DNA of 64,000 bases from Alphaproteobacteria bacterium (GTDB taxonomy: Bacteria; Pseudomonadota; Alphaproteobacteria; GCA-2731375), in the NCBI GenBank assembly GCA_965225945.1, contig CBDDBZ010000037.1, positions 128,001 to 192,000 of the forward strand. Direction: 5' to 3'. Below are positions 21,055 through 63,657 of this stretch, in pieces. Every line of letters begins with the position of its first letter. The stretch's first letter is position 1. The position numbers and the translations under genes are program-made. The notes beneath the pieces were generated by a model. The model saw nothing but the letters and a program-made list of their open reading frames with translations, ran no database searches and was not told the origin of the DNA.

Positions 21055-21552
21055 TCAGCCGTCGTTCATGGCGGCAAGCAGCATTTCCAGTGCGCTCACC
21101 ACCGTCGCTTCCCTGATGCCCCGGCGGCCGAGGTCGCCATAGCTCTCGCACCGATGCGCCTCGCCGCCGTCCTTACGCGCGAGCGCCAGATGCACCAGGC
21201 CGACCGGTTTCTCGGCCGTGCCGCCGCCAGGGCCCGCGATCCCCGTCACCGCGACCGCCAGGTCGGCTCGCGAGGCCCTGATCGCGCCGGCCGCCATCTG
21301 CCGCGCCGCCGCCTCGCTGACCGCGCCGACGGTGATCAGGGTCTTTTCGCGGACCCCGAGGACCTCTTGCTTGGCCGCGTTGGAATAGGTGACGAAGCCG
21401 CGATCGAGCACGTCCGACGCGCCGGCGATCGCACTCAGCGCGCCGGCGATCAGGCCGCCGGTGCAGGATTCCGCCGTCGCGATCGCGAGGCCCCTTGCCC
21501 GCGCGGCATCGAGCACGCGGCTCGCCAGCGCTTCGATCTCCGCACCGCTCAT
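21055..21552 (-). CDS. cinA: CinA/PncC-family NMN deamidase
   Basis: AESCTGG, TYSN, GAVSE, TGIAGPGG. Confidence 0.92.
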   Translation of the reverse strand: MSGAEIEALASRVLDAARARGLAIATAESCTGGLIAGALSAIAGASDVLDRGFVTYSNAAKQEVLGVREKTLITVGAVSEAAARQMAAGAIRASRADLAVAVTGIAGPGGGTAEKPVGLVHLALARKDGGEAHRCESYGDLGRRGIREATVVSALEMLLAAMNDG

Positions 21553-21556
21553 CGCC

Positions 21557-22042
21557 TCATTCCTCCAGAGCCAAGCGCAACAACAACACGCCGAGCCCCG
21601 AATAGACGGCGGCGAAGAGGTCGTCGACCATGGTGCCGAGGCCGCCCTTGATGTGTTCGTCGGCCCAGCGCGCCGGCCAGGGTTTGAAGATATCGGCCAG
21701 GCGAAACAGCACGAAGCCGGCCGCGAAGAGGCCTAGATCGAGGCCCGCCGGGATCAGCGTCAGCCACATGCCCGCCACCTCGTCGACCACGATATCGCCC
21801 GGATCCTCCCGGCCGAGCGCGGCGATGTAGACGTTGCCCGCCCACCAGCCGGCCAACGAGACGACGAGGGTGGCGCCCGCCAGCGCCCACGTCCCCCCGG
21901 CCCAGGTGATCGCCCAGGCCAAGGGGAGTGCGGCGAAGGAGCCCCAGGTGCCGGGCGCCGTCGGCATCAGGCCGGCACCGAACCAGGTGGCGATCAGGCA
22001 GGCCGGATGGCGAAAGGGAAGCGGGGGGGTCCGAAAGGCCAT
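21557..22042 (-). CDS. pgpA: Phosphatidylglycerophosphatase A
   Basis: APGTWGS, DPGDIVVDEVAG, FRLADIFKPWP, MVDD. Confidence 0.93.
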   Translation of the reverse strand: MAFRTPPLPFRHPACLIATWFGAGLMPTAPGTWGSFAALPLAWAITWAGGTWALAGATLVVSLAGWWAGNVYIAALGREDPGDIVVDEVAGMWLTLIPAGLDLGLFAAGFVLFRLADIFKPWPARWADEHIKGGLGTMVDDLFAAVYSGLGVLLLRLALEE

Positions 22043-22043
22043 C

Positions 22044-23234
22044 TCAGCCGGGCAAGCGTATGGTGGCGGTGGCCTGGGCGGCGATCCCCTCGCCTCGACC
22101 GAGAAAGCCGAGCTTCTCCGTCGTCGTCGCCTTGACGCTGACGCGACCCGGCTCGATCCCCAGGATCTCGGCGACGCGGGCGCGCATCGCTTCGCGGTGG
22201 GGGCCGACCTTCGGGCGTTCCAGGATCAGGGTCAGGTCGACATGCGCGATCTCGCCGCCCCGCTCGGCCACCAGAGCCCGGGCGTGAGCGAGAAAGCGGT
22301 CGGACGGCGCGTCGCGCCATCGCGCGTCGCTCGGCGAGAAATGCTGGCCGATATCGCCGGCGCCGATCGCGCCCAGGATCGCGTCGGTCAGCGCGTGCAG
22401 CCCGACGTCGGCGTCGGAATGGCCCAGCAGGCCCTGGTCGTGCGGCACGGCGACGCCGCACAGCATGACCGCCTCGCCGGCGGTGAAGCGGTGCACGTCG
22501 AAACCGTTGCCGACCCGGATATCGCCGAGGCTCGGTGCCGCCGAGGCTCGGGCGCGCATCATGTCCTCCGTGGTGGTGACCTTGAAGTTGCTCTCCGGCG
22601 CCGGCACCACGGCGACGGCCAGGCCCTCGGCCTCCGCCACCGCCGCGTCGTCGGTGAGCTCGCTGCCGGCCCGCGCGCGGTGGGCGGCGAGGATGTCGCC
22701 AAAGCGGAACCCTTGCGGCGTCTGCGTCCGCCAGAGTCCGTGGCGCGGAATCGTCTCGGCCACCATGGCGTCGGCGACCCGCTTGAGGCTGTCGGCGAGC
22801 GGGTGCGCCGGCACCGCGCCGGCGTGGTCGCGAAGCGCGGCGATGACGGCCGAGATGGTCTGGGCGGCGACGAAGGGCCGCGCCGCGTCGTGGATCAGCA
22901 CCTTGCCGGGCGCCGTCTCGACCAGGCTCTCGAGGCCGAGGCGGACGGAGTCCTGTCGCGTGGCGCCGCCGGCCACCGGGTCCAGGAGGTCGAGGCCGTC
23001 GAGCGTCGTGTCGTGCAGGGCGCGGTCGTCGGGGTGGATCACCACCCGGGTCGCGTGGACCTCGGGATGCGCGAGGAAGGCCATGACCGAACGCCTCAGC
23101 ATCGCCACGCCGGCAATGGCTTGGTACGGCTTCGCCGCCGCCCCGCCGAGCCGGGTCCCGCGTCCCGCCGCCATGACGAGCGCGATGGTCGCGCCGGAAC
23201 CCGTCTCCCTCTCGCCGTCGCTCGCTGTCGCCAC
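22044..23234 (-). CDS. ispDF: Bifunctional IspD/IspF
   Basis: [41 protein letters not shown]. Confidence 0.95.
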
Positions 23235-46091: not shown

Positions 46092-47190
46092 GACGGTCGT
46101 GGTCTTACGAACGGTTCCGGTTCCTCAGGCTTCGAACCCGTCGCTCATTTCAACACGACGGTCACATTCGTCGGATTGGCGACGACGTCGTAAACCGCCG
46201 AACGCTTCTGCGACTGGGCGATGATCGCCTCGATGTCCTCGCGGCTGGCGTCGGCGTCGATGTCGTAAGTGATATTGATGCCGCCGAAGCCGTTGCGGAC
46301 CTCGTCGTCGATGCCGAGGATGCCTTGCAGGTCCATGTCGCCCTCGATCGTCGCGGTGACCGAGTTCAGTTGGATGTTGCGAAACTGGGCGACCGCGGCG
46401 ATGCCCGCCGTCAGACAACTGGCCAGCCCCACCAGGACGTATTCGACCGGCGTGGCACCCAGGTCCTCCGAGGCAAAAACCTCCGGGTGATCGGCATCGA
46501 AGGTAAAGGTCTTCGTAACTGCCCAGGTAGCTGATTTCGATGAGGCTGCGGATTGGGTCTCTGGGGGCAGATTTTGTGGGTTTGGGGCGCTGACGGCCTA
46601 GATTTCGTTTGACAGAGGGTGGTTGGTCGATTCTAAGGATTCGATGGATAGGGATGTTCTTGCCTTTTTGTCGAAAGACGAGCTGATCGATGTGGTGCTG
46701 GCCCAAGGGTCGCGGCTCGCCGAGTTCGAACTCCGGCTTGGTGAACTCGAGCGCCGGCTTGGCCTGAACAGCACGAACAGCGGCAAGCCACCGTCGAGCG
46801 ATGGATTGAACAAGCCACCGGCGGGTAAAAAGAAGCGCACCAGGAGCCTCCGTAAGAAATCGGCCCGCAAGCCGGGCGGGCAAAAGGGCCACAAGGGCGA
46901 GACCCTGCGCCAAGTCGCCGATCCCGACGCCACCGTCGACCATTATCCCGAGACGTGCCAGTGGTGTGGTTCGGGATTGACGCCGGATATGGCTACCGGC
47001 CATGGGGCCCGCCAGGTTTTCGATCTACCCGAGCCCCGGCCCCTGGTGGTCACGGAGCATCGGGCGCATCGCTGCCGTTGCGGGCATTGCGGCACGTACA
47101 CTCGGGCTTCTTTTCCCGTCGCCATCACCGGCCCGGTTCAATACGGCGCTCGGATCGGAGCCATGGTGGTCTACCTGTCGCACTACCAAC

Positions 47191-47977
47191 CTTGCCTATC
47201 CGGTTATCACCCACACCCACTATATGTAGTGTGTCTCCTTGGACTGCAGGCAAGGGCCGGCGCAGGCGCATTGAGGAGGCGATCCGGCTAATTCTTGATT
47301 GTTCTGAAAACCGAACCGGAGTTTAATTCACGTCACGTACTTAACATCGGGGGACGGAACGGTGGCGACCAAGGGAAAAACGAAGAAACCCACGGCCAGA
47401 CGGGAAGCTGCTGATGAAACGACATCGTCTGAGCGATTGACGGCACTAGTCGAACCCACTATATGTAGTGTGTCTCCCCAGGACTGCAAAGCGACGCGCT
47501 GGCACGAATCGTTGCGAAGAACCCGTCCGCGCCTGTTAGTCTCCTGCGCGTTTTGAGTCGCAGCGAAGACGAAGCGACACGCAAGAACGTGATCCTCAAT
47601 CCGTTTACTTCATATGACGTATTGAGCGAACTTGAAAACCAGTTCACAGAGCTATTTGTGAATAATCCGGCACTCGAATCCTACAATTCAATGAAGCTCT
47701 GATTTCCTGGAATATTCCATCGGTGTCGTTCACCTCCGATTTCAGATAAATTTCAATGAAGTGACGGTCCTTTATGCAACGTGGCGTTTTGCCAAATCCG
47801 ACTCAATGATTAGGATTTCCACCACGCTAAAGTGTCGCCTAAAAGGCGCTACAATGCCGTCCGAGTCCCTGCTCGGCATCGCCGGAGATATCTCCGCTTC
47901 GACCTGCACCGAGCTTTACTCAGGAAAATGGGTGCACACTACATATAGTGGGTGTGGGTGATAACCGGATAGGCAAG
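47191..47977. mobile_element. Non-autonomous TIR cassette, copy 1 (787 bp)
   Basis: 43-bp perfect TIRs; TSD CTACCAAC at 47183-47190 and 47978-47985; no transposase. Confidence 0.92.
47362..47702 (+). pseudogene. Passenger ORF of cassette copy 1, frameshifted
   Basis: Same as 62482-62790 but with a net +32-nt insertion at 47455-47487. Confidence 0.7.
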
Positions 47978-49230
47978 CTACCAACTCCTGCCCGAGGACC
48001 GCCTGGCTGAATTGATGAAGGATCTGTTCGGGGCGGAACTGTCTCCGGCGAGCCTCGCGCGGATGGGCGGGAACAGCGCCGAGTCCGTCCAAGGCGTCGT
48101 CGATGTGATCCGCGAACTGGTGAAATCGGCGCCGGTCAAGCACATGGACGAGACCGGCTTGCGGATCGCCGGGCGGACCCAATGGTTGCACGTCGCCTCG
48201 ACCGCGCGGTTGACCTTCTATCGGGTCTCGGAGCGACGCGGCAGCCTGCTCGGCGGAGTCGGCGGCATCGTCGTCCATGACCACTGGAAGCCGTACTTTA
48301 CGATGGAGGGCGTACGGCACGCGCTGTGCAACGCCCATCACCTGCGCGAGTTGCAAGCCCTGATCGAGATCGAGAAGGAGGGCTGGGCACGCAAGATGCA
48401 GAGACTATTGCGCCGCGCCTGCCACGCGGTAAATCTCGCCCGGGAGCGGGGCGTGGCGCTGAAACCAGGCCTCGTCGAGCGCTTCCGAGGGTGTTACGAC
48501 GCGATCACGGCCGAGGGCATCGCCTTTCACGAGGCACAACCTCCTCTTGCGCCCAGATCGAGCAAGGCCAAGCGCCGGGGAAGCAAGCCGCGCCGCACCG
48601 GGCACAACCTTCTCCGGCGCCTTCAGACACACAAGGAAGACGCGCTGCGCTTCCTCATCAATTTCGCCGTGCCGTTCACCAACAATCAGGCCGAGCAGGA
48701 CGGGCGCATGATGAAGGTCAAGCAGAAAATCTCCGGCGGCTTCCGCAGCCAGAAAGGCGCCGAAGACTTTGCCACCGTCCGCGGCTTCATCTCGACCGCC
48801 AGAAAACAGGGCTGGAACATCATCCAGGCGCTCATGGAAAATCCCGAAACCCTGATCGAGCGTCTCCACGCCGCCTAAAAGGCCACCATGTACCTGGGCA
48901 GTTACAGGTCTTCTTGTGCATGTGCTCTTCGCCGAGGCCGAAGAAGCCTTCGACGGTCGAATGGCTGTAGGTGCCGTTCTTCCATTCGCAGGACGCGCGC
49001 CACATGAACTGGGCCGCTTCGGGCGCATCGGTCAGCGCCGTGCGCGCGCCGATCAGATGCTCGACGTTGACGCCGTTATTCGCTGTGCTTCCACCCTCGG
49101 ACATGTCGCCACTCCCTCTGTTGCCGCCAAGATGTTCCCTCTGCCCTGCACCATAGCAATGACAATGGTCGGGCGTCCAGGGAGCAATATCGGCGGGGTC
49201 CGGACCGACCTCGCGAGCCATTGCCGGCGG

Positions 49231-50124
49231 TCAGGCGCAAGCCACGCGCCGTCCCGTTCGGCAATATTCCTCGATCCACGCGGTCCGATTTTCACCATCG
49301 GACCAGAGCAGCGGAAAGAAGCTCTCGTCGAGGCTAGGATCGCCGGTGCGCTGATAGCGCCGGTAGATGTAGCCGCCCGGCTTGTCGGAGAACTCCGCGT
49401 GGCTCGGTATCATGTGAACGCCGACGGAGCGCCGGATCCGCTCGGCCGACGCGTTGGGGCCGGAGCCATGCCAGATTTCGCCGGCATGAAACACGCAAGA
49501 GCCGGCGGGCACCTCGATGGCGAGGGGTTCGGGCGCCGTGATGCCGGCCGCGCTCGCCGCATGGTGCATCGCCGCGCGGTAGTCGTCGGGGGCAAGAAAA
49601 TCCGCTGGTATGGCTGTCAGCGGCCAGTGATGGGAGCCCGGAACATATTCGATCGTCCCGGCTTCGGCCCATGTGTCGTCGAGCGTGAACCAGCACGTGA
49701 GCGTTTGCTGGGGGCGCAGAAAATCCAGAAACGAGGTGTCTTGGTGGAGCGTCACGGCTTTCGCTCCGGGCGGCTTCCACCAGATCGTGTCCTGGCCGAG
49801 CTTGACCCCCGGCCACTGGCCGAGGACGCCGGCCGCCCGCCCGATATCGGGTGACAGCGCGAGACGAGCGATCGTCAAGTCGGACTTCCAGGCATTGCAC
49901 ATGTGCCGGGTCACGTCCGGCAGAGAGATACCTTCGCGCCAATGCCATTCGTCGGGATAGACGCCGGTGTCGAAATCACCCGCGAACAGGCGCGGAAAGC
50001 AATCTCTGAGCCGCTGGACCCGCTCGTCGCTCAAGACCTTCGGGACGACCAGAAAGCCTTCGCGCTCGAAGCTCTCGACGCCTGAGGCCGAGATCTCTTC
50101 CAACCGCGGGATGTGCCAGGCCAT
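49231..50124 (-). CDS. Phytanoyl-CoA dioxygenase (PhyH) family Fe(II)/2OG enzyme
   Basis: WWKPPG, HQD, LTCWFTLDD, YVPGSH, WHGSGPN...RR. Confidence 0.88.
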   Translation of the reverse strand: MAWHIPRLEEISASGVESFEREGFLVVPKVLSDERVQRLRDCFPRLFAGDFDTGVYPDEWHWREGISLPDVTRHMCNAWKSDLTIARLALSPDIGRAAGVLGQWPGVKLGQDTIWWKPPGAKAVTLHQDTSFLDFLRPQQTLTCWFTLDDTWAEAGTIEYVPGSHHWPLTAIPADFLAPDDYRAAMHHAASAAGITAPEPLAIEVPAGSCVFHAGEIWHGSGPNASAERIRRSVGVHMIPSHAEFSDKPGGYIYRRYQRTGDPSLDESFFPLLWSDGENRTAWIEEYCRTGRRVACA

Positions 50125-50292
50125 TATGCTCTCGCTTCCATCTGAGGCGCGATGGCCGATTATATGTCGCGTATTCGGGAGGTGAAAGCGGCCTTCTCGA
50201 TCACCGGCCGCCATCACCCGCCGATCGCCGAGGGCGAAGCGGCCGGGCAATAGCACTCGACAAAACGGCGACTCCCCCGCCCGGCGGCGTCC

Positions 50293-52320
50293 TCAGGCGG
50301 CCTTTTCCTCCTCGCGCTGGGAAATCACCTGCTCGGCGAGGCGGCCGGTCAACTCCTGCAGGCGATCGAAATGCGCCACATAAGACGCGACGCCCTGGGT
50401 CAGCGAGCGCAACTCGACGATGATGTCGTGCATCTCCAATTCCGGGATGGTACCGCTGACCACGTCCCAGCCGCTCCAGCCCGGCCGCACATCGAAGCCC
50501 AGCACCTGGCCGCGCCGCCCGCTCAGCACCTGGTTGATCCGGGGCGTGAACTCCGATGGCACCATGACGTCGATCCGCATGATCGGCTCCAGCAGCACCG
50601 GATCGCACTTCGGCATGCCCTCGGACATGGCGATCCGCGCCGCCGTCCTGAAGGCAATTTCCGAGCTGTCCACCGCATGGAACTGGCCGTCGTAGAGCTC
50701 GACCTGGAGGTCGACCACGGGAAAGCCGAGCGGGCCTTTGGCGAGGTAGTCCTTGACCCCGTTTTCGACCGCCGGGATGTACTGCCGGGGCACCACGCCG
50801 CCGACGATCGAATTCTTGAACTCGAAGCCGGTCCCGCGTGGCTGCGGCTTTATGGTCAAGTGGACGTCGCCGAACTGGCCGTGGCCGCCCGACTGCTTCT
50901 TGTGCCGGCCGTGCTGATCCACCGACTTGCGGATCGCCTCCATGTAAGGGACGCGCGGGCGCCGGGTCGAGACGGCCAAGCCGTATTTGTGCCGCAAGCG
51001 ATCGACCGCGACGCGGAGGTGGATGTCCCCTTGGCCGCGCAGGACGAGTTCGCGCGTCGCCTCCATCTGCTCGTAGATCAAGGAGGGATCCTCGTCCGAG
51101 AGCTTGGAGAGCGCGCCCGAAAGCTTGACCTCGTCGTCCCGTTTGTCGGCCGAGATGGCGAGCGAGAACACCGGCGTCAGGGTATCCTCGGCGGCGAGCT
51201 CCGGCGCCTCCTTGCCGTCGCTCAGGACCTGGCCGGTGACGGCGGAATCGAGGCGGGCGAGACCCACCACCGCGCCCGGTCCCGCCTCGGCGATCTTTTC
51301 CGTGCCGTGGCCGAGCATGCGGAAGAGGCCGGCGACGCGCTCCCCGTTCAAGCTCATGCCGTCCTTCACCACGCCGCACCAAACCCGCGAGATCGAAAGC
51401 TTGCCGGCATGGGGGGTGTGGATGGTCTTGAGCACCTGGGCGACGACACCATCGCCAAATTCGCCCTGGCGCGCCGCCGCCACCTCAGCCCCCGGCACCT
51501 CGTGGCGCAGGAACTTCAGCAGGCGGCGGACGCCGTGGTCGAGTTCGGCGGAGCCGAGTAGCACCGGCACGATTTGGCCGTCCTGGAAGGCGTTGGTGAG
51601 GTTGGCGTAAATCTCGCCGTCCTCCAGCGTTATGTCCTCCAGCACCTTCTCCATCAACTCGTCGTCGAAATCGGCGAGCGTCTCCAGCATCGCGTAACGC
51701 GCGGTCTCGAAATCGTCGCTCGAGTCCGCCGGCAGCTCGATCGGCTCGGAGGCCGCGTTGGCCTTGTAGGAGAAGACCCGTCGGCTCGCCAGATCGACAT
51801 AGCCGCCGACGGCCTCGCCGTTCGCGAGTGGCATGTGACGGAGCACCAGGGGGGCGTCCGACATCGGCCCGAGCGCGTCCAACAGGCCCGGAATATCGCC
51901 GTTTTCCCTGTCGACCTTGTTGACGAAGAGGAGCCGGGGAATGTCGTGATCCGCCAGGATCTTCAGCAACGGCACGGCGGCCAGGGCCTTGCCCGGGTCC
52001 GGCTCGACCACGACGATGGCGCCATCGACGCCGACGATGGCATTGCGGCTCTCTTGCAGCAGCTCGACGGAGCCGGGGCAGTCGAGGAAGGCGAGGCTAT
52101 CGTCGAGGAAGCTCGTGACGGCGACGTTGACCTCGGTCCCCATGCCGCGCTCGCGGGATTCCGGCGCGCTGTCGCCGACGGTGTTGCCGGCGCTCTGCGT
52201 ACCTTTTCGTCCGATCGCCCCGGTGGCGAATAGAATGCTTTCGAGGAGCGTCGTCTTACCGCTGAGATAGGGACCCAGGATGGCGACGCTCCTCGGTCCG
52301 GTGGGCTTCGAAGTGCTCAT
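50293..52320 (-). CDS. Elongation factor G-like protein (EF-G2 type)
   Basis: GKTT, DCPG, NKVD, HKKQSGGHGQF, FHAVDSSE, LRSLTQG; outside the str operon. Confidence 0.9.
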   Translation of the reverse strand: MSTSKPTGPRSVAILGPYLSGKTTLLESILFATGAIGRKGTQSAGNTVGDSAPESRERGMGTEVNVAVTSFLDDSLAFLDCPGSVELLQESRNAIVGVDGAIVVVEPDPGKALAAVPLLKILADHDIPRLLFVNKVDRENGDIPGLLDALGPMSDAPLVLRHMPLANGEAVGGYVDLASRRVFSYKANAASEPIELPADSSDDFETARYAMLETLADFDDELMEKVLEDITLEDGEIYANLTNAFQDGQIVPVLLGSAELDHGVRRLLKFLRHEVPGAEVAAARQGEFGDGVVAQVLKTIHTPHAGKLSISRVWCGVVKDGMSLNGERVAGLFRMLGHGTEKIAEAGPGAVVGLARLDSAVTGQVLSDGKEAPELAAEDTLTPVFSLAISADKRDDEVKLSGALSKLSDEDPSLIYEQMEATRELVLRGQGDIHLRVAVDRLRHKYGLAVSTRRPRVPYMEAIRKSVDQHGRHKKQSGGHGQFGDVHLTIKPQPRGTGFEFKNSIVGGVVPRQYIPAVENGVKDYLAKGPLGFPVVDLQVELYDGQFHAVDSSEIAFRTAARIAMSEGMPKCDPVLLEPIMRIDVMVPSEFTPRINQVLSGRRGQVLGFDVRPGWSGWDVVSGTIPELEMHDIIVELRSLTQGVASYVAHFDRLQELTGRLAEQVISQREEEKAA

Positions 52321-52466
52321 GGTGTTGGCCTTTCCCTGGATTATTGTCGTGCTATCCGCCCCTCCCGGACGGTTTTCCATCGATCGGCCGGAGCCCGGCC
52401 GATCCCTGACCGTATGGTTTCAAATCCGGGGCGGGACGCGCAAGGAGAAAGCGACGTCCCGACCCA

Positions 52467-53396
52467 TCATCGCTCGCCCGCGCGCCCCTCGGCCCAGGGT
52501 TTGAGCGCCGCATACATCACCCGGTGCAGCGGCGCCGCCAGCCCGTGCTTTTCGGCCAACCGCCAGACCGCGCCCGAGAGCCACTCGACTTCCAGCCGTT
52601 TGCCCTGCTCCAGGTCCATCGCCATGGAGGCGCGGGTCCCGGGCGCCATGTTGTCGGCGACGGCGACGATGTTGGCCACCTCGTCGCCCAGATCATGGCC
52701 CTCCGCCGCCGCGACGCGCACCACCTCCTCGGCCGCGTCGGCGAAGAGTTGGCGCATCACCGGATCCTCCCGGATCGGCCCGATGGTCTGGCGGGTGAGC
52801 GCGGTGACGCCGGCCATGGTGGCGAGGAAGACGAACTTGCGCCAGATCAGGTCACAGATGTCGCCCGAGAGCCTAGCATCGATGCTGGCCTCGCGCGCCG
52901 CCTCGTCGAAGGCGCGCAGCCGCGGGCTCCTCTCGCCGTCGAGCTCGCCGAAGGCGATCGCCGGGGCAATGGCGAAATGCTGGACGACGCCGGGCGCGAC
53001 GATGCCGCCGGAGATGTAGGCGACGCCGCCGACGACGTGATCGGCGCCCAGGATCGGGGTCAAGCGGTGTTCGGAGTCGATGCCGTTCAACAGCGAGATC
53101 ACCGCCGTCTCCGGTCCGATCAGCGCCCGGCAGGCTTCGCCCGCGCTCTCGACGTCCCAGAGCTTGGTGGCGAAGAGCACGATGTCGACGGGGCCGATCT
53201 CGCCCGCTTGGTCGCTGGCCCGGGCCGGCCGGACATGGACGTCGCCGGTGCTGGCGCTCCTGATCTCCAGGCCCCTCTCGCGGATCGCCGCTAAGTGCGC
53301 GCCCCGGGCGAGGAAGCCGACGTCGAGCCCGGCCGCCGCCAGCTTGGCGCCGAAATAGCCACCGACGCCGCCGCTCCCCAGCACCGCGATTTTCAT
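52467..53396 (-). CDS. panE: 2-dehydropantoate 2-reductase family
   Basis: GSGGVGG, LLNG, WRKF, ASMAMD...E. Confidence 0.85.
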   Translation of the reverse strand: MKIAVLGSGGVGGYFGAKLAAAGLDVGFLARGAHLAAIRERGLEIRSASTGDVHVRPARASDQAGEIGPVDIVLFATKLWDVESAGEACRALIGPETAVISLLNGIDSEHRLTPILGADHVVGGVAYISGGIVAPGVVQHFAIAPAIAFGELDGERSPRLRAFDEAAREASIDARLSGDICDLIWRKFVFLATMAGVTALTRQTIGPIREDPVMRQLFADAAEEVVRVAAAEGHDLGDEVANIVAVADNMAPGTRASMAMDLEQGKRLEVEWLSGAVWRLAEKHGLAAPLHRVMYAALKPWAEGRAGER

Positions 53397-53400
53397 GCCC

Positions 53401-53703
53401 TCACCCCTTGTCCGCGAGAGCTACCAGCGCGGCGTCGATATCGCCGCCGGTCAGCGACCAGGTGTTGTCGAGATAGGCGATCACCTCGGCCATGAAGGCC
53501 TCGTGCAGCGCCAGCGCCCGCTGGTCGTCGCCCAGATGGTCGGCCAGCATCGCCAGCGCCAGTTGGGCGGGCGAAGCCCCCTCGTAGGTCCATTCGAAGC
53601 CGAGATCGGTGATCCGCTTCAGATCCGTCCTCGCTTCGAGGGGCCGGCCGTCGACCAGCACCTCGATGCCGTCGATGGTGCGGTCGCCCCGATAGGTCTT
53701 CAT
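53401..53703 (-). CDS. Small conserved hypothetical protein (DUF6166-like)
   Basis: YRGDRTIDG, FEWTYEGASPAQLALAMLADH; GGAG RBS. Confidence 0.7.
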   Translation of the reverse strand: MKTYRGDRTIDGIEVLVDGRPLEARTDLKRITDLGFEWTYEGASPAQLALAMLADHLGDDQRALALHEAFMAEVIAYLDNTWSLTGGDIDAALVALADKG

Positions 53704-53797
53704 GCTCTCCCTCCCCGAGCCGCGGACCGAGAGCCTTCGATATTAGCCGAAAGGCCTCAGGCGTCGAGGGCCGCCCGCGTGATCGCCTCGACGCTGA

Positions 53798-53856
53798 AAA
53801 AGGGGTCATTGTACTTTATTCGGCGGAACGGATCAAAAAGCAGAATGACCCCTTTT
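53798..53856. repeat. REP-like hairpin, copy 3 (inverted)
   Basis: Reverse complement AAAAGGGGTCATTCTGCTTTTTGATCCGTTCCGCCGAATAAAGTACAATGACCCCTTTT. Confidence 0.85.
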
Positions 53857-53922
53857 CCCTTCGGAGATCACGATGCCGTGCCTCGGCCGGCTCCGCCACC
53901 CCGTCCCCCTTGCCCCGCGCCC

Positions 53923-55123
<1,201 letters not shown>

Positions 55124-55134
<11 letters not shown>

Positions 55135-56893
55135 GGGCTGATCCGTCCTCGTCCGGCGCCTGGGCGGCGCCCTTGTCTATCAGCTCGCGCGCACCGCTGA
55201 CCAGCCTCTCGCCATGCGCGCGTCGGGCTGCATCGAGGCCGACCTTGCCGTCGGCGAGGTCTTCCGCCAGGGCCTCGACGGCGCGTTTCCCCGGCTCCCC
55301 CAGGCCGCCGCCGCCCGGCGTCTCCAGCCGAATCGATTCCCCGGCGCGAAGCACGATCCGCGACGGCTTGGAGGAGAGCTCCCGCGTCTCCGCCCCGCTC
55401 ACGCGGTGGAGTATTCGGGCCCTGGCGCCCGCGGCCCCGCCATCGAGTCCGGGCGCCCCCGACTCGTGCCCGTCGGAGCGGGCCGAGAACACCACGCCGT
55501 CCCGCGTCGCCGCGATTTCCCGGGCGATGCCGAGGCCGCCGCGCCGGGTCCCGGCGCCGCCCGAATCCTCGACCAGGGCGTATTCCACCACGCGCAGGCA
55601 GTATTCGTGCTCCAAGGCCTCGACCGGCAGGTTCGAGGTGTTGGTCATGTGCATCTGGATCGCCTCCATGCCGTCGGCCTCGAGGCTGGCGCCGCCGCCG
55701 CCGCCCACCGTCTCCAGATAGACGAAGGGCTCGCCGTCGCCGGGCCGGGGGCCGGAGAAGACGATCGCCGGCACGATGTCGTGCCCGGCGGACATCGCGC
55801 GTGCCGCCGGCAGCAGGGGGGCGAAGGCGCGGAATAGCGCGCGGGCGATCTTGTTGCAGGTGATGGAGCGGGCGCCGCACGCGGCGGGCGGGCGCGGGTT
55901 GACCAGGCTCGCTTCCGGCAAGACGATTTCGATTCCCCGGAACATGCCGCTGTTCGCCATCAGCTCGGGATCGAGCAGCGCCTTGACGGCATAGTAGACC
56001 GTGGCGCGCGCGGCGCTGGGCGGGACGTTCATCGCGCCGCGCGCCTCCGTGCCCGTGCCGGTGAAATCGATCGTCAACCGCGGGCCCTCGACGGCGACCT
56101 CGACGACGATTGGCACGGCGCCACCGGGAAAGCCGTCGTCGTCGAGATGGCTTTCCCCGCGATGCCGGCCGTCGGGGAGCGCCAGGACCCGCGCGGCGAG
56201 GCGGCGGTGGGTATAGGCGAGGAGGTCGTCCAGCGAGCGGGCGACCGCTTCCAGCCCCAACTCCGCGATCAGCTCGGTGACCAGTTTGCGGCCCCGCTCG
56301 TTGGTCGCCACCTGGACCTGGAGGTCGAGCCGGCGTTCCACCGCGTCGCGGGAGTTGAGCGCGATCAGATCGATCACGTCGTGGTTCAGGGCACCGGCCC
56401 GGGCGATCCGGACGGCGGGAATGCGCAGACCCTCTTCGTAGATCGTCCTCGACTGGCCGGAGATCGAGCCCGGCACGCTGCCGCCGACGTCGGCATGGTG
56501 GCCGATGTTGGCGGCGAAGAAGCAGACCCGGCCGTCGTGGAAGATCGGCGTCACCACCGAGATGTCGGGGGTATGGGTGCCGCCGGCGACATAGGGGTCG
56601 TTGCAGACGAAAGCGTCGCCCACGACCATATCCGCGATTGCGGTCAGGGCGAGCGCGGCCTCGACGCCGCCCATGAGGGAGCCCAGATGCAGCGGCACGT
56701 GCGCCGCCTGTGCCGCCAGTCGCCCGCCCGCGTCGAACAGGGCGACGGAACAGTCCTTGCGCTCCTTGATGTTGGTCGAGAAGGAGGAGCGCACGAGGGT
56801 GTGTCCCATCTCCTCGGTGATCGAGAGCAATCGGTTGGAGAACACCTCCATCAGAATCGGGTCGTGGGCCGGGTCGTCGAAGGTGGCGCTCAT
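55124..56893 (-). CDS. Hydantoinase B/oxoprolinase
   Basis: SFSTNIKERKDCS, NDPY..GTH.PD, HHADVGG, TPGGGG. Confidence 0.92.
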
Positions 56894-58935
56894 GGGCCCG
56901 CCTCCTCCTCGATCAGGATGTTGCCGTGGCCGTCGATCCGCGCGCTCTGGCCGGGCAGCACCAGGGTGGTGGCGCTCATCTCCTCGACGATCGCCGGGCC
57001 GGATAGGCGAACGCCGACGGCCAAACCATCGCGGGCATGGACCGGCGTCTCGCGCCAGCCGGTGGCCTCGTCGATATAGACGCGTCGCCGGCTCTCGAGC
57101 CCCGGCGTCGCCTCGCCGGCGGGCGGTCGCTCGTCGCCGGCGCGCTCGATACGCCCGATCGCACGCGAGCGGCAGTTGACGATCTCCACCATCCGGCCCT
57201 CCAGCGTGTGGCCGTGGACGCGGCGATGGGTCTCGTGGAAGCGCCAGAGAAAGCCGGCGAGATCCCCCGTCTCGGGCGACCAGGCGACCCGGACCTCGTG
57301 GTTCTGCCCGAGATAGCGGGCATCGAGGGCCATTTCATGCTCGCGCCTGGGCGCCGGAACCGCCTCGGAGTCCAGCCAGGCCTCGCCCTGGTCCCGCATA
57401 CCCGCGAGCCGCGCCATCACGCGGGGCCAGGCCGCCGCGTCGGCCGGCGCGATCTCGGTCTGGACGAAGTCGAGCGCGATGTCGGAGACCAGGATGCCCC
57501 GGGCGCACAGCGTGCCGGGCTCCCTCGGCACCAGGACCCGCGCGAGCCGCAGCTCGCGCGCGATCTCGGCCGCATGCAGCGGGCCCGCGCCGCCATAGGC
57601 GACGAGGCTGAAGCCGGCGAGATCGTGGCCCCGCTCGCTCGAAACGGCGCGGACCGCGCGCGCCATGTTGGCCAGCGCCACCCGGATCACGCCGCGTGCC
57701 GCGCGTTCCGGCGCCAGGCCCAAGGGTTCCGCGATGCCACGCGTCACCGCCGCCGTCGCGGCTTCGAGGTCGAGCGCGATGCGGCCGCCGACCAGACCGC
57801 CCGGCCCGAGGCGGCCGAGCACCAGGTTGGCGTCGGTCAGCGTCACCGCCTCGCCGCCTTGGCCGTAGGCGACCGGACCGGGCACGGCGCCCGCGCTCTC
57901 AGGTCCGACCTTGAGCCCGCCGGCCTCGTCGATCCGGGCGATCGAGCCGCCGCCGGCGCCGATCACGTGCACGTCGATCATCGGGTTGCGCGCCGGATAG
58001 CCGGCGATCTCCCGCTCCGAGGTCGCGAGCGGCGCTCCGTCGTGGACCAGCGAGACGTCGGTGGAGGTGCCGCCGACGTCGAAGGTGACGAGATCCCGGA
58101 AGCCCGCCTCGCCGGCGATCCGCGCGGCGCCGACGACGCCGGCGGCGGGGCCGGACAGGCAAGTTCTGACCGGATGCCCGCTCGCCGTCGCAAGCGACAT
58201 CAGGCCGCCGTTGGAATGAAGGGTGTAGGGCGCCGCGCGGATCCCGAGCTCCCCCATCGCCTCGGCGAAGCGGGCGAGATAGCGGCTCATCCGGGGCCCG
58301 ATATAGGCGTTCAGCACCGTCGTCGAGGTCCGCTCGAATTCGCGGAACTCCGGCGTCACCTCGGCGGAGAAGCTGACATAGAGATCGGGCGCGCGTGTCC
58401 TGACGAGGGCGGCGATCCGGGCCTCGTGCTCCGGGCGGCGATAGCTGTGCAGCAGCGCGATCGCGAGCGCCTCGATCCCTTGCTCCAACAGGCTCTCGAT
58501 CGCCGCCATCGCCTCGGCCTCGTCGAGGGGGCGGAGGATTTCGCCATCGGCGGCGACCCGCTCGTCGAGCTCCAGGCGCCGGCGGCGGGGGACCAGCGGC
58601 GGCGGCTTGCGCTGGCCGTAGTCGTAGAGATGCGGGCGGGTCTGGCGGCCGATCTCCAGGACGTCGCGAAAGCCCCGGGTGGTGATGAGGCCGGTCGGCG
58701 CGCCGCGACGCTCGATAATCATGTTGGTGGCGACGGTGGTGCCGTGGCCGAGGAAGACGACGTCGCCCGGATCGGCCTCGTGTTCCGCCAGCAATCGCGT
58801 GAGCCCAGCGCGAATGGCGCGGGCGGGATCGTCCGGCGTGGACGGCACCTTGACGTGGCGCAGCCGAGCCCGAGCGGGATCCGCGAGGGTGAAGTCGGTG
58901 AAGGTGCCGCCGACGTCGAAACCGATTCTGTACAT
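56890..58935 (-). CDS. Hydantoinase A/oxoprolinase
   Basis: DVGGTFTD, GTTVATN, SGPAAG, DVGGTSTD, IGAGGGS. Confidence 0.93.
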   Translation of the reverse strand: MYRIGFDVGGTFTDFTLADPARARLRHVKVPSTPDDPARAIRAGLTRLLAEHEADPGDVVFLGHGTTVATNMIIERRGAPTGLITTRGFRDVLEIGRQTRPHLYDYGQRKPPPLVPRRRRLELDERVAADGEILRPLDEAEAMAAIESLLEQGIEALAIALLHSYRRPEHEARIAALVRTRAPDLYVSFSAEVTPEFREFERTSTTVLNAYIGPRMSRYLARFAEAMGELGIRAAPYTLHSNGGLMSLATASGHPVRTCLSGPAAGVVGAARIAGEAGFRDLVTFDVGGTSTDVSLVHDGAPLATSEREIAGYPARNPMIDVHVIGAGGGSIARIDEAGGLKVGPESAGAVPGPVAYGQGGEAVTLTDANLVLGRLGPGGLVGGRIALDLEAATAAVTRGIAEPLGLAPERAARGVIRVALANMARAVRAVSSERGHDLAGFSLVAYGGAGPLHAAEIARELRLARVLVPREPGTLCARGILVSDIALDFVQTEIAPADAAAWPRVMARLAGMRDQGEAWLDSEAVPAPRREHEMALDARYLGQNHEVRVAWSPETGDLAGFLWRFHETHRRVHGHTLEGRMVEIVNCRSRAIGRIERAGDERPPAGEATPGLESRRRVYIDEATGWRETPVHARDGLAVGVRLSGPAIVEEMSATTLVLPGQSARIDGHGNILIEEEAGP

Positions 58936-58956
58936 CGCCGCGCGTCCTGGGGCGGT

Positions 58957-59076
58957 TCAGACCGCTTCCGGCGGCACCACCGGCCGCGGGCCCGGCACCA
59001 CGATCCCGCCCCCGCTCCAGGCCTCGGGTCCGGTGAAAACGATCGGCTCGGCGGCCGCCTTGGTGCTCGCCTGCAT
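58957..59076 (-). pseudogene. 39-codon remnant, possibly a TauD-like dioxygenase N-terminus
   Basis: GGAGAG RBS; MQASTKAAAEPIVFTGPEAWSG. Confidence 0.3.
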
Positions 59077-59168
59077 GCTCGCTCTCCCCCGACGATGGGC
59101 GCCGGCAACCTACACGCGCCAGCGTCGCCGGCAAAGCATCCGCCCGCGTCGCCTCGAATTATGTATAA

Positions 59169-60263
59169 CGTCCCTATCCGGTTAAGGCAGGCAGCGCTCC
59201 CTGCGATTGTATACCGTCGACCAGTTCCCTGTAGGTGATGGTCGGTCGGGTCATGGCGCGGTGCAACACGAAATCGGCAAGGTCGAAGATGCGTTTGCGC
59301 CGGTTGAAGCGGTAGTTCCATTCCCGGACGTAGCGCGGCAAATGCTTGGCGCTCACCCCGTGGTAGGTTCCGTTGAGCCACGTCTTCACGTTGGAAAACA
59401 GGACATGGACGACCGGCATGAGCTGCTCGGCGTTCTTGCCTTGGCCTTGAACGACGGGCTGGTGGCGATAAGTATCGCCAAGCTTGGCGTAACTCTTGAA
59501 AGCGTCGCTGTCGAGGCGGCTTCCCGGCTTCACCGAGGCGCGCACGAAGTCGCCCAACTCACGGGCGGTGGCCTCGGGCAGGATGGCGAGCCGCGCGGCG
59601 CCGGCGGCGAAGCCGCTCCCCTTGATGCCCTTGCCCGACCCGACCGGCCACTTCTCGACCGCCATCACCAACAGGCTCTTGTTCGGGTTGGAAAGCCCGC
59701 GCCCCCGGCTCTCCGGCTTGCCCCGCCCGCCGTAATAGCTCTCGTCGACCTCGACCAAGCCCTCCAGCGGGAACTCCGGGCGCTCCGTCAGGGCATGGCG
59801 CAGCTTGTGGGCCATCAGCCAGGCGGTGTCGTAGCGCAGGCTCAACTCTCGCGACAGAAACAGCGCCGAGACCCCGCGCTTGTCGCGCCCCATCCACCAC
59901 GCCGCCAGGAACCATTTGCGCAACGGTGTGCGGGTGCGGTGGAAGACCGTGCCCGCGGTCACCGATTCCTGATGGCCGCAACCGGCGCATTCGAAGACCC
60001 GCGGCCGCGTCTTCAATTGGTAGTTCCGCCTCTCGCCGCAACGCGCGCAGACGTAGCCTTGCGGCCAGCGCAGCCGAGCCAGCGCCTCGATGCAGTCCGC
60101 CTCCGATCCATGGCGTTCGAGGAACTCCAATATCCCGCTCATCGAATAGTCCTCCAAAAGCTCCAGCCGATGCGATCAGCCTACACCTCTATGGAGAACA
60201 TATCAAGAACATTCGGAGCCCATCCTGCTTTAACCAGATAGGGACGTTAACCAGATAGGGACG
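59169..60263 (-). mobile_element. IS1595-family insertion sequence with a duplicated end
   Basis: IRs CGTCCCTATCCGGTTAAGGCAGG / CGTCCCTATCTGGTTAAAGCAGG; 17-bp tandem duplication at 60230-60263; flanks ATGTATAA / ATATCTAA. Confidence 0.88.
59174..60142 (-). CDS. IS1595 transposase (intact)
   Basis: CARC...CAGC, SVTAGTVFH, VEVDESY, DSDAF, YVREWNYRFNRR. Confidence 0.92.
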   Translation of the reverse strand: MSGILEFLERHGSEADCIEALARLRWPQGYVCARCGERRNYQLKTRPRVFECAGCGHQESVTAGTVFHRTRTPLRKWFLAAWWMGRDKRGVSALFLSRELSLRYDTAWLMAHKLRHALTERPEFPLEGLVEVDESYYGGRGKPESRGRGLSNPNKSLLVMAVEKWPVGSGKGIKGSGFAAGAARLAILPEATARELGDFVRASVKPGSRLDSDAFKSYAKLGDTYRHQPVVQGQGKNAEQLMPVVHVLFSNVKTWLNGTYHGVSAKHLPRYVREWNYRFNRRKRIFDLADFVLHRAMTRPTITYRELVDGIQSQGALPALTG

Positions 60264-60312
60264 ATATCTAATATCTCTTCGCCGCCCGGCGACGTGGAAA
60301 GGGGAGCCACAC

Positions 60313-60774
60313 ATGAGCGAGCAGATTGAGGTCGACGACGGTTCGCAGGGTGCCAAGCCGGCTGGATTCTGGATTCGATTCGCCGCCTACATCATCGACG
60401 CCATCCTGCTCACGATCGTCGGTTGGCTGATCGCCGCCGTTTTCGGCATCGGCATGGCAATGGACATGTCGGACCCGGAAGCGGTCAGCGGCGCCTTCGT
60501 CGGGTTTCAAGTGGGCATGATGGTCTTCTGGTGTATCTATTTGGCCGCTTTCGAATCCTCCAAGCTGCAGGCGACGCCGGGTAAGCTGGTGGTCGGCGTG
60601 CGGGTGAGCGACGCCGCCGGAGCGAGAATCGGCATCGGCCGCGCCCTGGGCCGGGCGCTGGCGAAATACATCTCGGCCATCATCCTGTTGATCGGCTTCA
60701 TCATGGCGGCATTCACCGATCGCAAGCGGGTGCTGCACGACATGATGGCGGGCACGCTCGTCAGCTATCGCTGA
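60313..60774 (+). CDS. RDD-family membrane protein
   Basis: AGFWIRFAAYIID, QATPGK, LHDMMAGT. Confidence 0.9.
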   Translation: MSEQIEVDDGSQGAKPAGFWIRFAAYIIDAILLTIVGWLIAAVFGIGMAMDMSDPEAVSGAFVGFQVGMMVFWCIYLAAFESSKLQATPGKLVVGVRVSDAAGARIGIGRALGRALAKYISAIILLIGFIMAAFTDRKRVLHDMMAGTLVSYR

Positions 60775-60793
60775 AACCGAGAAGGGAGGGCAA

Positions 60794-61777
60794 TTGAAGT
60801 ACCGGCGACTGGGGCGAACCGGCCTGGAAATCTCGGAGATCGTCTTCGGCGCGGGCTTCGTCGGCGGCGTGCTGATCCACCAAGGCGAGGCGATGGGCCG
60901 CGAGGCGCTGGAACGCGCCCGCGCGCTGGGCATCGACTGGATCGACACCGCGCCGTCCTACGGCGACGGCAAGTCGGAAAGCGCGCTGGGCAAATTGCTG
61001 CCGGCGATCGGCTGGCAACCCCGGCTGTCGACCAAGTTCCGCCTCGAACCGGGCGGGCCGGCGCCGATCGCGACGCAGATCGAGACCAGCGTCGAGGCCA
61101 GCCTGGCCCGCTTGGGGGTCGATTCCGTCGACATGCTGCAACTGCACAATCCCCTGGGCGCCGAGACCGACGAGCGCCACCTCGGGATCGACCGGGTGCT
61201 GGAGGCGGGCGGCGTGGCGGACGTCATGGACGATCTGCGCCGGCGCGCCATCACCCGCCATCTGGGCTTCACCGCGCTCGGCGACGCGGCGACGCTGCGC
61301 CGGATGGTCGCGAGCCATCGTTTCGATACCGCGCAGGTCTATTACAACCTCTTGAACCCGAGCGCCGGGCGCACTGTATCCGCCGGCTGGTCGAGCGAGG
61401 ATTTCGGCGACGTCATCGCCACCTGCCAGGCCCATGACGTCGGTGTCCTGGTGATCCGCGTGATGGCCGCCGGCATTCTCGCCACCGACGAACGGACCGG
61501 GCGCGAGATGGCGATGTATCCGAGTGGCGACGTCGCCTCCGAGGAGGGGCGGGCAGGCGCGGTGCGCGCCGCGCTCGTCGGCGAGCCGGGCAACCGGGCC
61601 CAGGCGGCGATCCGCTTCGCGCTCGGTCATGCGGGCATCAGTGCCGTGTTGATCGGCCCGAGCGTGCCCGATCACCTCGACGAGGCGGCCCGCGCGGTCG
61701 ACATGGCCGCGCTGGCGCCCGAGACCTTGGCCCGTCTCGCCCAGCTTCACGACGGCGATTTCGGCCGCCTCGGCTGA
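60794..61777 (+). CDS. Aldo/keto reductase
   Basis: YRRLGRTG, IDTAPSYG, STK, SLARLG..D..QLH. Confidence 0.9.
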   Translation: MKYRRLGRTGLEISEIVFGAGFVGGVLIHQGEAMGREALERARALGIDWIDTAPSYGDGKSESALGKLLPAIGWQPRLSTKFRLEPGGPAPIATQIETSVEASLARLGVDSVDMLQLHNPLGAETDERHLGIDRVLEAGGVADVMDDLRRRAITRHLGFTALGDAATLRRMVASHRFDTAQVYYNLLNPSAGRTVSAGWSSEDFGDVIATCQAHDVGVLVIRVMAAGILATDERTGREMAMYPSGDVASEEGRAGAVRAALVGEPGNRAQAAIRFALGHAGISAVLIGPSVPDHLDEAARAVDMAALAPETLARLAQLHDGDFGRLG

Positions 61778-62310
61778 GCCGGACCGGCATCGCCGGGTGG
61801 CCGGGGGCTTTACGATGCGCTCGGTCCGATCGGTGGCGCGCGCCCCATCGCGGTGAAATACCGGGTGGAATTCGAAGCCTGGAGGGGTGGCGCGAAATTG
61901 CCTAAAATTCGAAACGGATTTTAGCGGTATTTGGCTCAAAGGTTCGACGAAACAAGTTGAAAAACCACCTAAATATCAATGGTTTGCTAATCGAAATTTA
62001 AAGGATAAAATTGAAAATAAGGCTGAGAATGACGACATAATCGTTGCCGAGGAAGGATGCGACATCGGGTCGCGAGACCGGCTGAAGGGTCACCGGGAGA
62101 CGCGGATCATGGCCAGGAACGAGACGAGCCGCGATCGCCGCGCCCGAGGCGTGGGCCGTATGGTGGCCATCCTCGTACTGATCGGGATCGCCGCCGCGAA
62201 TTCGGCCCTTTTCTACTTTATCATCTGGCCCGAATTCTCGCCCCACGATCCGTTCAGTGCGATTCTCTTCTTCATCAGTGGCGGCGCACACCTGATCTAT
62301 TTCTTCATCC

Positions 62311-63065
62311 CTTGCCTATCCGGTTATCACCCACACCCACTATATGTAGTGTGTCTCCTTGGACTGCAGGCAAGGGCCGGCGCAGGCGCATTGAGGAGGC
62401 GATCCGGCTAATTCTTGATTGTTCTGAAAACCGAACCGGAGTTTAATTCACGTCACGTACTTAACATCGGGGGACGGAACGGTGGCGACCAAGGGAAAAA
62501 CGAAGAAACCCACGGCCAGACGGGAAGCTGCTGATGAAACGACATCGTCTGAGCGATTGACGGCACTAGTCGAAGAAAGCGACGCGCTGGCACGAATCGT
62601 TGCGAAGAACCCGTCCGCGCCTGTTAGTCTCCTGCGCGTTTTGAGTCGCAGCGAAGACGAAGCGACACGCAAGAACGTGATCCTCAATCCGTTTACTTCA
62701 TATGACGTATTGAGCGAACTTGAAAACCAGTTCACAGAGCTATTTGTGAATAATCCGGCACTCGAATCCTACAATTCAATGAAGCTCTGATTTCCTGGAA
62801 TATTCCATCGGTGTCGTTCACCTCCGATTTCAGATAAATTTCAATGAAGTGACGGTCCTTTATGCAACGTGGCGTTTTGCCAAATCCGACTCAATGATTA
62901 GGATTTCCACCACGCTAAAGTGTCGCCTAAAAGGCGCTACAATGCCGTCCGAGTCCCTGCTCGGCATCGCCGGAGATATCTCCGCTTCGACCTGCACCGA
63001 GCTTTACTCAGGAAAATGGGTGCACACTACATATAGTGGGTGTGGGTGATAACCGGATAGGCAAG
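62311..63065. mobile_element. Non-autonomous TIR cassette, copy 2 (755 bp)
   Basis: Same 43-bp TIRs; flanks CTTCATCC / CTTCATAC (7/8 TSD). Confidence 0.92.
62482..62790 (+). CDS. Passenger ORF, LRV/HEAT-like repeat protein (102 aa)
   Basis: GGGGGA RBS; ARIVAKNPSAPVSLLRVL / TRKNVILNPFTSYDVL / FVNNPAL periodic NP repeats. Confidence 0.6.
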   Translation: MATKGKTKKPTARREAADETTSSERLTALVEESDALARIVAKNPSAPVSLLRVLSRSEDEATRKNVILNPFTSYDVLSELENQFTELFVNNPALESYNSMKL

Positions 63066-63657
63066 CTTCATACCTTGGTTCGTGGTCGACGTGATCGGCG
63101 CCTCGTTCGGTACCGGCGGCGAGGATCCGAGCAAATACGAGACCAACCTGGGCGGCGATACGTCCGGCTTCTTCATGCGGCTTTGCACCTTGGTCGGCGT
63201 GCTTTCCATCGCCGTCGTCGCCATGCTCAGCCTGCTGGAAGATCAGTTTCGCGACGACGCGCCGCCGCCCGTCGCCATCACCCGGGCCAATTGTCTCTCC
63301 GTGGGCGGCGTGCCGACGATGATCGGCGGCCGGATGACCTGCAGTTTCGAATCGCAACAGCCAGCCCCCGTCGGCGGGACTGAGCCAGCCCCCGCCGGCG
63401 GAACGCAGTAGGGGGCCGGCCGCGGAGAGTTTGGGCGATGGGCCTCGCCGGGACGCCCTTGCCCGGTGAAGCCAGACCATCATCGCCCGGCGGCTCGGCC
63501 CCTCGCGGCCGAGCCGCGAGGCGTTCGAGCCAATTGCGAGCCTGGGGGATTGCGCATGATCGGTTCATGCCAGCCCGGATTTTCTGCTAGAACTCGGTGG
63601 GATCGGCGCGACCGCGCCGCGATGTATCCCGGCCAGGGATCAGGAAAGCGACGGAAC

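Follow-up and report, generated by a model that had tools for sequence, protein, structure and literature searches.

What moves a short DNA element that has no transposase gene, and what does the one small gene that it does have contribute? Both questions are raised by a 64,000-nucleotide stretch of an Alphaproteobacteria bacterium genome (the window; assembly GCA_965225945.1, contig CBDDBZ010000037.1, positions 128,001 to 192,000 of the forward strand), which contains two copies of such an element, each bounded by terminal inverted repeats (TIRs) like those of an insertion sequence (IS); the element's open reading frame (ORF) encodes a 102-residue repeat protein. We suggest that the element is a non-autonomous IS1595 derivative, that it is probably moved in trans by an IS resident in the same genome, and that its own gene probably serves its propagation. 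Non-autonomous bacterial elements are usually regarded either as hitchhikers that are passive and non-coding or as cassettes whose cargo is incidental; MIC231 of Bacillus cereus is an example of such a mobile insertion cassette (MIC). Here, a single small gene forms the unvarying content of a family that extends across many Alphaproteobacterial genomes and metagenomes. If its protein promotes mobilization, it would represent a new class of transposition accessory factor, and the element would be actively parasitizing an IS.

The element and its recent amplification

The 43-nt TIR string has four exact matches in the window (0 mismatches), which form two inverted pairs, as initially annotated, and was not found in any of 100 shuffles. 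Copy 2, the reference form of 755 bp (62311..63065, +), has 21 identical counterparts elsewhere in the genome. Its TIRs, both exact matches, lie at 62311..62353 (+) and 63023..63065 (-), and between them are a non-coding leader that runs from the left TIR to the ORF (62354..62481, +), the 102-residue ORF with a GTG start (62482..62790, +), and what is left of the 3′ end of a transposase gene of the IS1595 family (62940..63022, +), whose homology continues through the right TIR to position 63065. Copy 1 (787 bp, 47191..47977, +; exact TIRs at 47191-47233 (+) and 47935-47977 (-)) had been described as identical to copy 2 apart from one insertion. That insertion, of 32 nt after element position 264 (47455..47486, +), is indeed present, breaks the ORF, and is private to copy 1 (1 of 60 genome copies), but copy 1 also carries a neighboring substitution; there are no further differences. 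The inserted sequence resembles element positions 25-56 at the inner left end (91% over 35 nt), and may be the footprint of a nested insertion or the product of a template switch.

Each copy had further been said to be flanked by an 8-bp target duplication and to disrupt a different gene. Copy 1 has a perfect target site duplication (TSD), CTACCAAC, at 47183..47190 and 47978..47985, but the flanks of copy 2, CTTCATCC (62303..62310) and CTTCATAC (63066..63073), agree at only seven of eight positions. The interrupted genes do differ: copy 1 lies in an IS66-family transposase gene (46623..48878, +) with Pfam matches on both halves (DUF6444 and zf-IS66 on 46623-47189, DDE_Tnp_IS66 on 48012-48878), and copy 2 splits an ORF that has no Pfam match. 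The empty site of copy 1 can be seen directly, because in approximately 28 uninterrupted IS66 copies of the same genome, the sequences that flank it on either side overlap by exactly 8 bp. The IS66-family element occurs as near-identical copies at about 28 further places in this genome, and copies of it and of the element under study are nested in each other, for example on contigs C18 and C30.

The two copies of the initial annotation proved to be a small part of the total. A scan of the whole 6.27-Mb assembly (39 contigs) with the 43-nt TIR at up to 3 mismatches gave 149 matches that form 65 adjacent inverted pairs, so that the approximately 65 copies, at 755 bp each, make up roughly 0.8% of the genome. 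Exactly 755 bp separate the outer ends in 46 of the 65 pairs, and among copies of up to 900 bp, 22 of 60 are identical. Tabulation of the target sites, as had been proposed, revealed perfect 8-bp TSDs at 50 of the 65 pairs and a single mismatch at 5 more. The 50 perfect TSDs follow an approximate pattern GWTYRAWC, which is palindromic and AT-rich (47% GC), in which position 1 is G/C in 49 cases, position 8 is C/G in 44, and positions 2, 3, 6, and 7 are A/T. The low GC content noted initially is also borne out (51.0% for the element vs 66.3% for the genome). On account of its copy number, its TSDs, the identical copies, and the empty site, the element is real, mobile, and recently amplified, in keeping with the recent activity first ascribed to it. 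On contig C24, one copy (21293-22078) combines an intact ORF with a tandem duplication of 31 nt at position 51, in the leader.

A search for the same TIRs around different cargo had been suggested as a check on whether the element is a general vehicle for gene capture. Five TIR pairs of 1504-2353 bp were considered as such cases and rejected, as they consist of element copies that other insertions have split or that adjoin further copies. The search did yield two structures with identical outer 8-bp flanks and differing inner flanks, one consisting of two direct copies around 3874 bp with a TPP-enzyme gene and an oxidoreductase gene, the other of two inverted copies around 401 bp. To judge from these flanks, both appear to bear the signature of composite transposition. 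As a practical matter, the element disrupts genes and other ISs, forms what look like composite transposons, and breaks assemblies in related genomes. The interrupted copies include L003 844-2439, L009 430-1454, and L006 821-1994, with inserts of 1596, 1025, and 1174 bp and junction duplications of element sequence of 8, 8, and 3 bp, respectively.

A resident IS1595-family IS as candidate helper

No ORF of the element encodes a transposase (DDE_Tnp_IS1595), as the initial annotation had stated, but the right approximately 126 bp (element positions 630-755) are a remnant of a transposase gene, 77% identical to the 3′ end of an IS resident in the genome, and the remnant ORF at 62849-63049 has peptide motifs in common with the transposase C-terminus. 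The annotation had also entertained the thought that the whole interior might be transposase remnant. That description applies to only about 126 of the 755 bp, because element positions 44-629 (586 of 755 bp) show no similarity to the IS.

The resident IS was recognized through a second class of ends in the genome, 21 in number, which have their first 16 nt in common with the element TIR. These ends bound a 1105-bp IS encoding a 339-aa protein that matches PF12762, PF12760, and NF033547 (the IS1595 zinc ribbon and DDE domains), and nine full-length, uninterrupted copies of its gene are present. The element TIR matches the left inverted repeat of this IS (IRL) at 30 of 33 positions, or 30 of 32 nt by a second count, and the right one (IRR) at 26 of 33, the terminal 16 nt being identical to both. 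Matches elsewhere point to the same family: the right end of the element is 84% identical over 68 nt to genes labeled ‘IS1595-like element ISAcr1 family transposase’ on Acidiphilium plasmids, and matches in the plasmid collection are confined to the terminal 68-124 nt, again to IS1595-family transposase genes. The name ISAcr1, here a PGAP product label only, was not found in a literature search. Where element ends from three sources were compared, the best-matching IS end was the co-resident one for four of five ends. In one further genome (G213), 47 matches to the same transposase (99% identity) accompany six full-length elements at 99-100%.

Because it has no transposase ORF and retains only the 3′ remnant, and because its ends match those of the resident IS, the element is, as far as its sequence can tell, not an IS but a non-autonomous IS1595-family derivative of the MIC or MITE type (MITE, a miniature transposable element with inverted repeats), which upholds the link to IS1595 made at the outset. 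It has the 8-bp TSD, the terminal 16 nt of the resident member, and a transposase 3′ remnant in common with IS1595-family ISs, and differs from them in lacking a transposase gene and in the dissimilar 586 bp.

The candidate helper itself often occurs as a 1631- or 1658-bp structure, in which the left end of the 1105-bp IS adjoins an inverted copy, approximately 526 bp long, of the IS's own 3′ half, and also as a 1121-bp derivative with two right-type ends (L001 201-1831, L010, and L002). The window contains a second, unrelated IS1595-family transposase gene (59174-60157, -), encoding 327 aa with about 35% identity to the helper; it has different ends and about 15 copies genome-wide.

A family with one conserved gene

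The annotated 102-residue repeat protein matches the Pfam family LRV_2 (PF25591) with an E-value of 2.6e-8 and a score of 34.1 bits, above the gathering threshold of 27; for the LRV family PF01816 its score of 19.4 is below the cut-off of 21.6. A protein search identified 234 homologues (E ≤ 0.001), mostly of exactly 102 aa and 74-88% identical, many of them on very short contigs. An alignment of 19 sequences over 102 columns has no indels other than a one-residue gap in one sequence.

The DNA around the relatives was examined at 92 loci, 12 from a scan of species-representative genomes and 80 from a metagenome scan, with up to 3 kb of flank. Both TIRs could be located in 68. Of these complete elements, 65 are 516-582 bp long (546 bp being commonest) and 3 are 754 or 755 bp, as in the window; the short form consists of a TIR, a leader of about 125 nt, the ORF, some 20 nt, and the other TIR, and most family members lack the transposase remnant. 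An open frame of at least 100 aa is kept in 65 of the 68, with a start codon (ATG, GTG, or TTG) at the same position in 45 of these 65 ORFs. At the estimated boundaries, 8-bp TSDs are perfect in 18 of 67 relatives and have one mismatch in 5. None of the 92 loci has an intact transposase gene within the same TIRs as the LRV gene, and the only full IS encountered, in L076, adjoins the element and has its own ends. The ‘gene tail’ that had been described upstream of the ORF, within 62354..62481, is not supported: it has no Pfam match, and its frame stops at varying places in the relatives (nt 38 to 221). Its reading as a gene remnant was therefore rejected, and it is taken to be a chance open frame in the leader.

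Selection on the ORF was assessed from the ratio of nonsynonymous to synonymous substitution rates (dN/dS) among 55 distinct ORFs, using the 1388 pairs with dS of 0.1-2. The median pairwise value between lineages is 0.283 (interquartile range 0.233-0.356) and every value is below 1; when the reading frame is shifted in either way, this calculation yields 0.885 and 1.394. Entropy is highest at codon position 3 (0.57 / 0.40 / 0.77 for positions 1/2/3), dS between lineages reaches approximately 1, and across 59 relatives, column identity is 86% in the ORF vs 72-78% in the leader. Within the genome, the picture differs: of the distinct changes observed in the ORF, 19 are nonsynonymous and 3 synonymous, with some at residues invariant in the family, and a few of them, near an indel, could be alignment artefacts. 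The ORF is thus under purifying selection between lineages, while single copies within the genome decay neutrally. Genes encoded by transposons characteristically show purifying selection between lineages, with individual copies decaying neutrally. We conclude that the 102-residue gene is the conserved core of a widespread family and not incidental cargo (it had been described as a passenger gene), and that selection acts at the level of the element lineage. From this combination, it would follow that the protein serves propagation of the element.

An AlphaFold2 model (59 sequences, pLDDT 71) predicts a disordered, basic N-terminus (residues 1-22) followed by six short helices. A wide VIA-align fold search was uninformative, as Z reached at most 5.0, on short helical segments. 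In a profile search, 4994 proteins matched at E ≤ 0.001, the best being large LRV/HEAT repeat proteins of 400-2200 aa, in which as many as 20 units matched and some of which contain a WGR domain. The 102-residue protein matches the repeat units of these proteins (PF01816, PF25591) as well as LRV_2, but unlike the large LRV proteins, which have 5-20 units and sometimes WGR, it comprises a single free-standing unit of about 100 aa, whose N-terminus is basic and disordered, and it lies inside a mobile element. As for expression, contigs from RNA libraries of three studies, compared as assembled contigs only, cover the interior, which is weak evidence, as DNA carry-over is possible, and does not prove transcription. 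A scan for the sigma-70 consensus found no promoter in the leader; its single hit is 3′ of the ORF, and hits are no more frequent than in shuffles.

Proposed mechanism, alternatives, and distribution

We propose that the element is an IS1595-family-derived MIC of MITE size. The transposase of the resident IS, with its zinc ribbon and DDE domains, would bind the element TIRs and move the element in trans; any two TIRs could be used, which would give rise to composite transposons. The LRV protein would most likely act as a diffusible accessory factor that, at the element ends, helps to recruit or modulate either the borrowed transposase or some host factor. The 755-bp form may be a variant that gained approximately 210 bp beside the right TIR, including the transposase remnant, and that has recently multiplied in this genome and passed from one bacterial family to another.

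The element has much in common with known non-autonomous elements. Excerpts of PMC3129680 describe MICs and transporter ISs that carry passenger genes, and excerpts of PMC11602168 and PMC3852290 describe MITEs as non-coding, the former giving their size range as 50-800 bp; ORFs inside some prokaryotic MITEs are noted in PMC10969869. Like MICs and MITEs, the element has IS-type TIRs, TSDs, no transposase, and a high copy number, and, by the mechanism proposed here, would be mobilized in trans by a cognate IS. Both its 755-bp form, with approximately 65 copies, and the 516-582-bp forms of the 65 relatives fall within the MITE size range. It resembles the MICs of the PMC3129680 excerpt in having a gene other than a transposase gene within its ends, but in contrast to MIC cargo, this single gene is the same in nearly all family members and is under purifying selection, and in contrast to MITEs, the interior is coding, with a conserved ORF at a dN/dS of 0.28. 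A literature search, which did not cover ISfinder, found no description of the element.

Several observations weigh against the proposed mechanism. The element TIR differs from both ends of the helper, and among the ISs of this genome, none was found that bears exactly the 43-nt TIR. The helper is a candidate identified by the similarity of its ends and by co-occurrence. Another genome, G017, contains element fragments and no match to the helper transposase at E ≤ 1e-60, in an assembly that is fragmented (360 contigs) and 92% complete. The protein has no NCBIfam match, no match at E ≤ 0.001 in a Foldseek search against the PDB, and no convincing structural neighbor; a role for it in transposition is conjectural. 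The relatives' loci were seeded with peptide patterns, which biases them towards intact ORFs. Finally, diverged copies in this genome and in the congeneric genome G002 have broken ORFs, and both copy 1 and a shorter relative in contigs from public sequencing runs lack an intact one; the protein is therefore not needed in cis.

A bolder view, possible but on present evidence doubtful, is that the element is one half of a ‘split’ transposon, in which a small, non-catalytic LRV adaptor, the sole product encoded on a minimal TIR element, would capture the DDE transposase of a separate IS1595-family IS or redirect it to the element's own ends. The element would then be a hyperparasite of the IS with a dedicated gene, and the selection signature of that gene and the excess of the element over its helper (approximately 65 vs 9 copies) would both follow. 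Such a system could be likened to Harbinger ORF1 and its transposase placed on two elements: excerpts of PMC2836001 describe the small, non-catalytic ORF1 protein as needed together with the DDE transposase, and the two as suppliable from different elements. PIF/Harbinger elements are eukaryotic, and the likeness is one of function, with no relationship to the LRV element in sequence or fold. Unlike in Harbinger, moreover, the IS1595 transposase has a zinc-ribbon DNA-binding domain of its own, and a requirement for the LRV protein is hypothetical. A predicted complex of the helper transposase with the LRV protein scored 0.02, which is no evidence in either direction.

It is unlikely that the element is mobilized as proposed but that its LRV gene is mere cargo, a piece captured from an LRV-repeat gene of a host, either neutral or of use to that host and without a role in transposition. 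The profile matches to the repeat units of large LRV/HEAT proteins would be expected of such a fragment, and there are precedents, as the PMC3129680 excerpt includes MICs and transporter ISs with unrelated passenger genes and that of PMC10969869 reports MITE-borne ORFs of unknown function. However, the same 102-aa gene, at the same length and position, is the sole content of 65 of the 68 complete relatives, which come from many sources; a dN/dS of 0.28 between lineages with a 19:3 ratio within the genome marks a gene of the element lineage and not a host gene held in about 60 redundant copies; and the copies insert into genes and other ISs.

We consider it improbable that the element is an internal deletion of an unseen autonomous ‘transporter IS’ of the IS1595 family, which would contain both the LRV gene and a transposase gene and would be the true helper. 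The transposase remnant of the 755-bp form is oriented as expected for an order IRL-LRV-transposase-IRR, its identity to the resident IS is just 77%, and neither resident end corresponds exactly to the TIR of 43 nt. Such a parent was nonetheless encountered at none of the 92 loci within their flanks, no IS with this TIR is present in the genome in which approximately 65 copies were recently amplified, and most family members have no transposase remnant at all. Hardly credible, lastly, is a non-functional ORF whose conservation reflects constraint on the DNA (internal transposase-binding or structural sites) or recent spread, since although the RNA-library contigs may be DNA carry-over, the leader has no recognizable sigma-70-type promoter, and some copies have broken ORFs, selection is specific to the frame (0.28 vs 0.89 and 1.39), variability peaks at codon position 3, dS extends to approximately 1 between lineages, start codons occupy a common position, and the alignment is almost free of indels.

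The 755-bp form occurs, whole or in part and at 89-100% identity, in four other genomes, G213 among them: one is congeneric, one belongs to another genus within the family, and two come from a different family. Even sampling of the class showed the ORF (E ≤ 1e-10) in 3 of 401 genomes, including this one, and the stretch is present in public sequencing runs from 13 studies. Contigs of runs X7, X19, and X9 join both element ends and have the 604-nt interior (window 62354-62959) replaced by 207 other letters; this structure is the shorter relative, which has the same ends and lacks the ORF. Another of the four genomes, G029, contains 164 sequences that match the helper transposase (97-99% identity) and only fragments of the element. 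These matches amount to a massive expansion of the IS, and IS and element alike are near-identical across two bacterial families.

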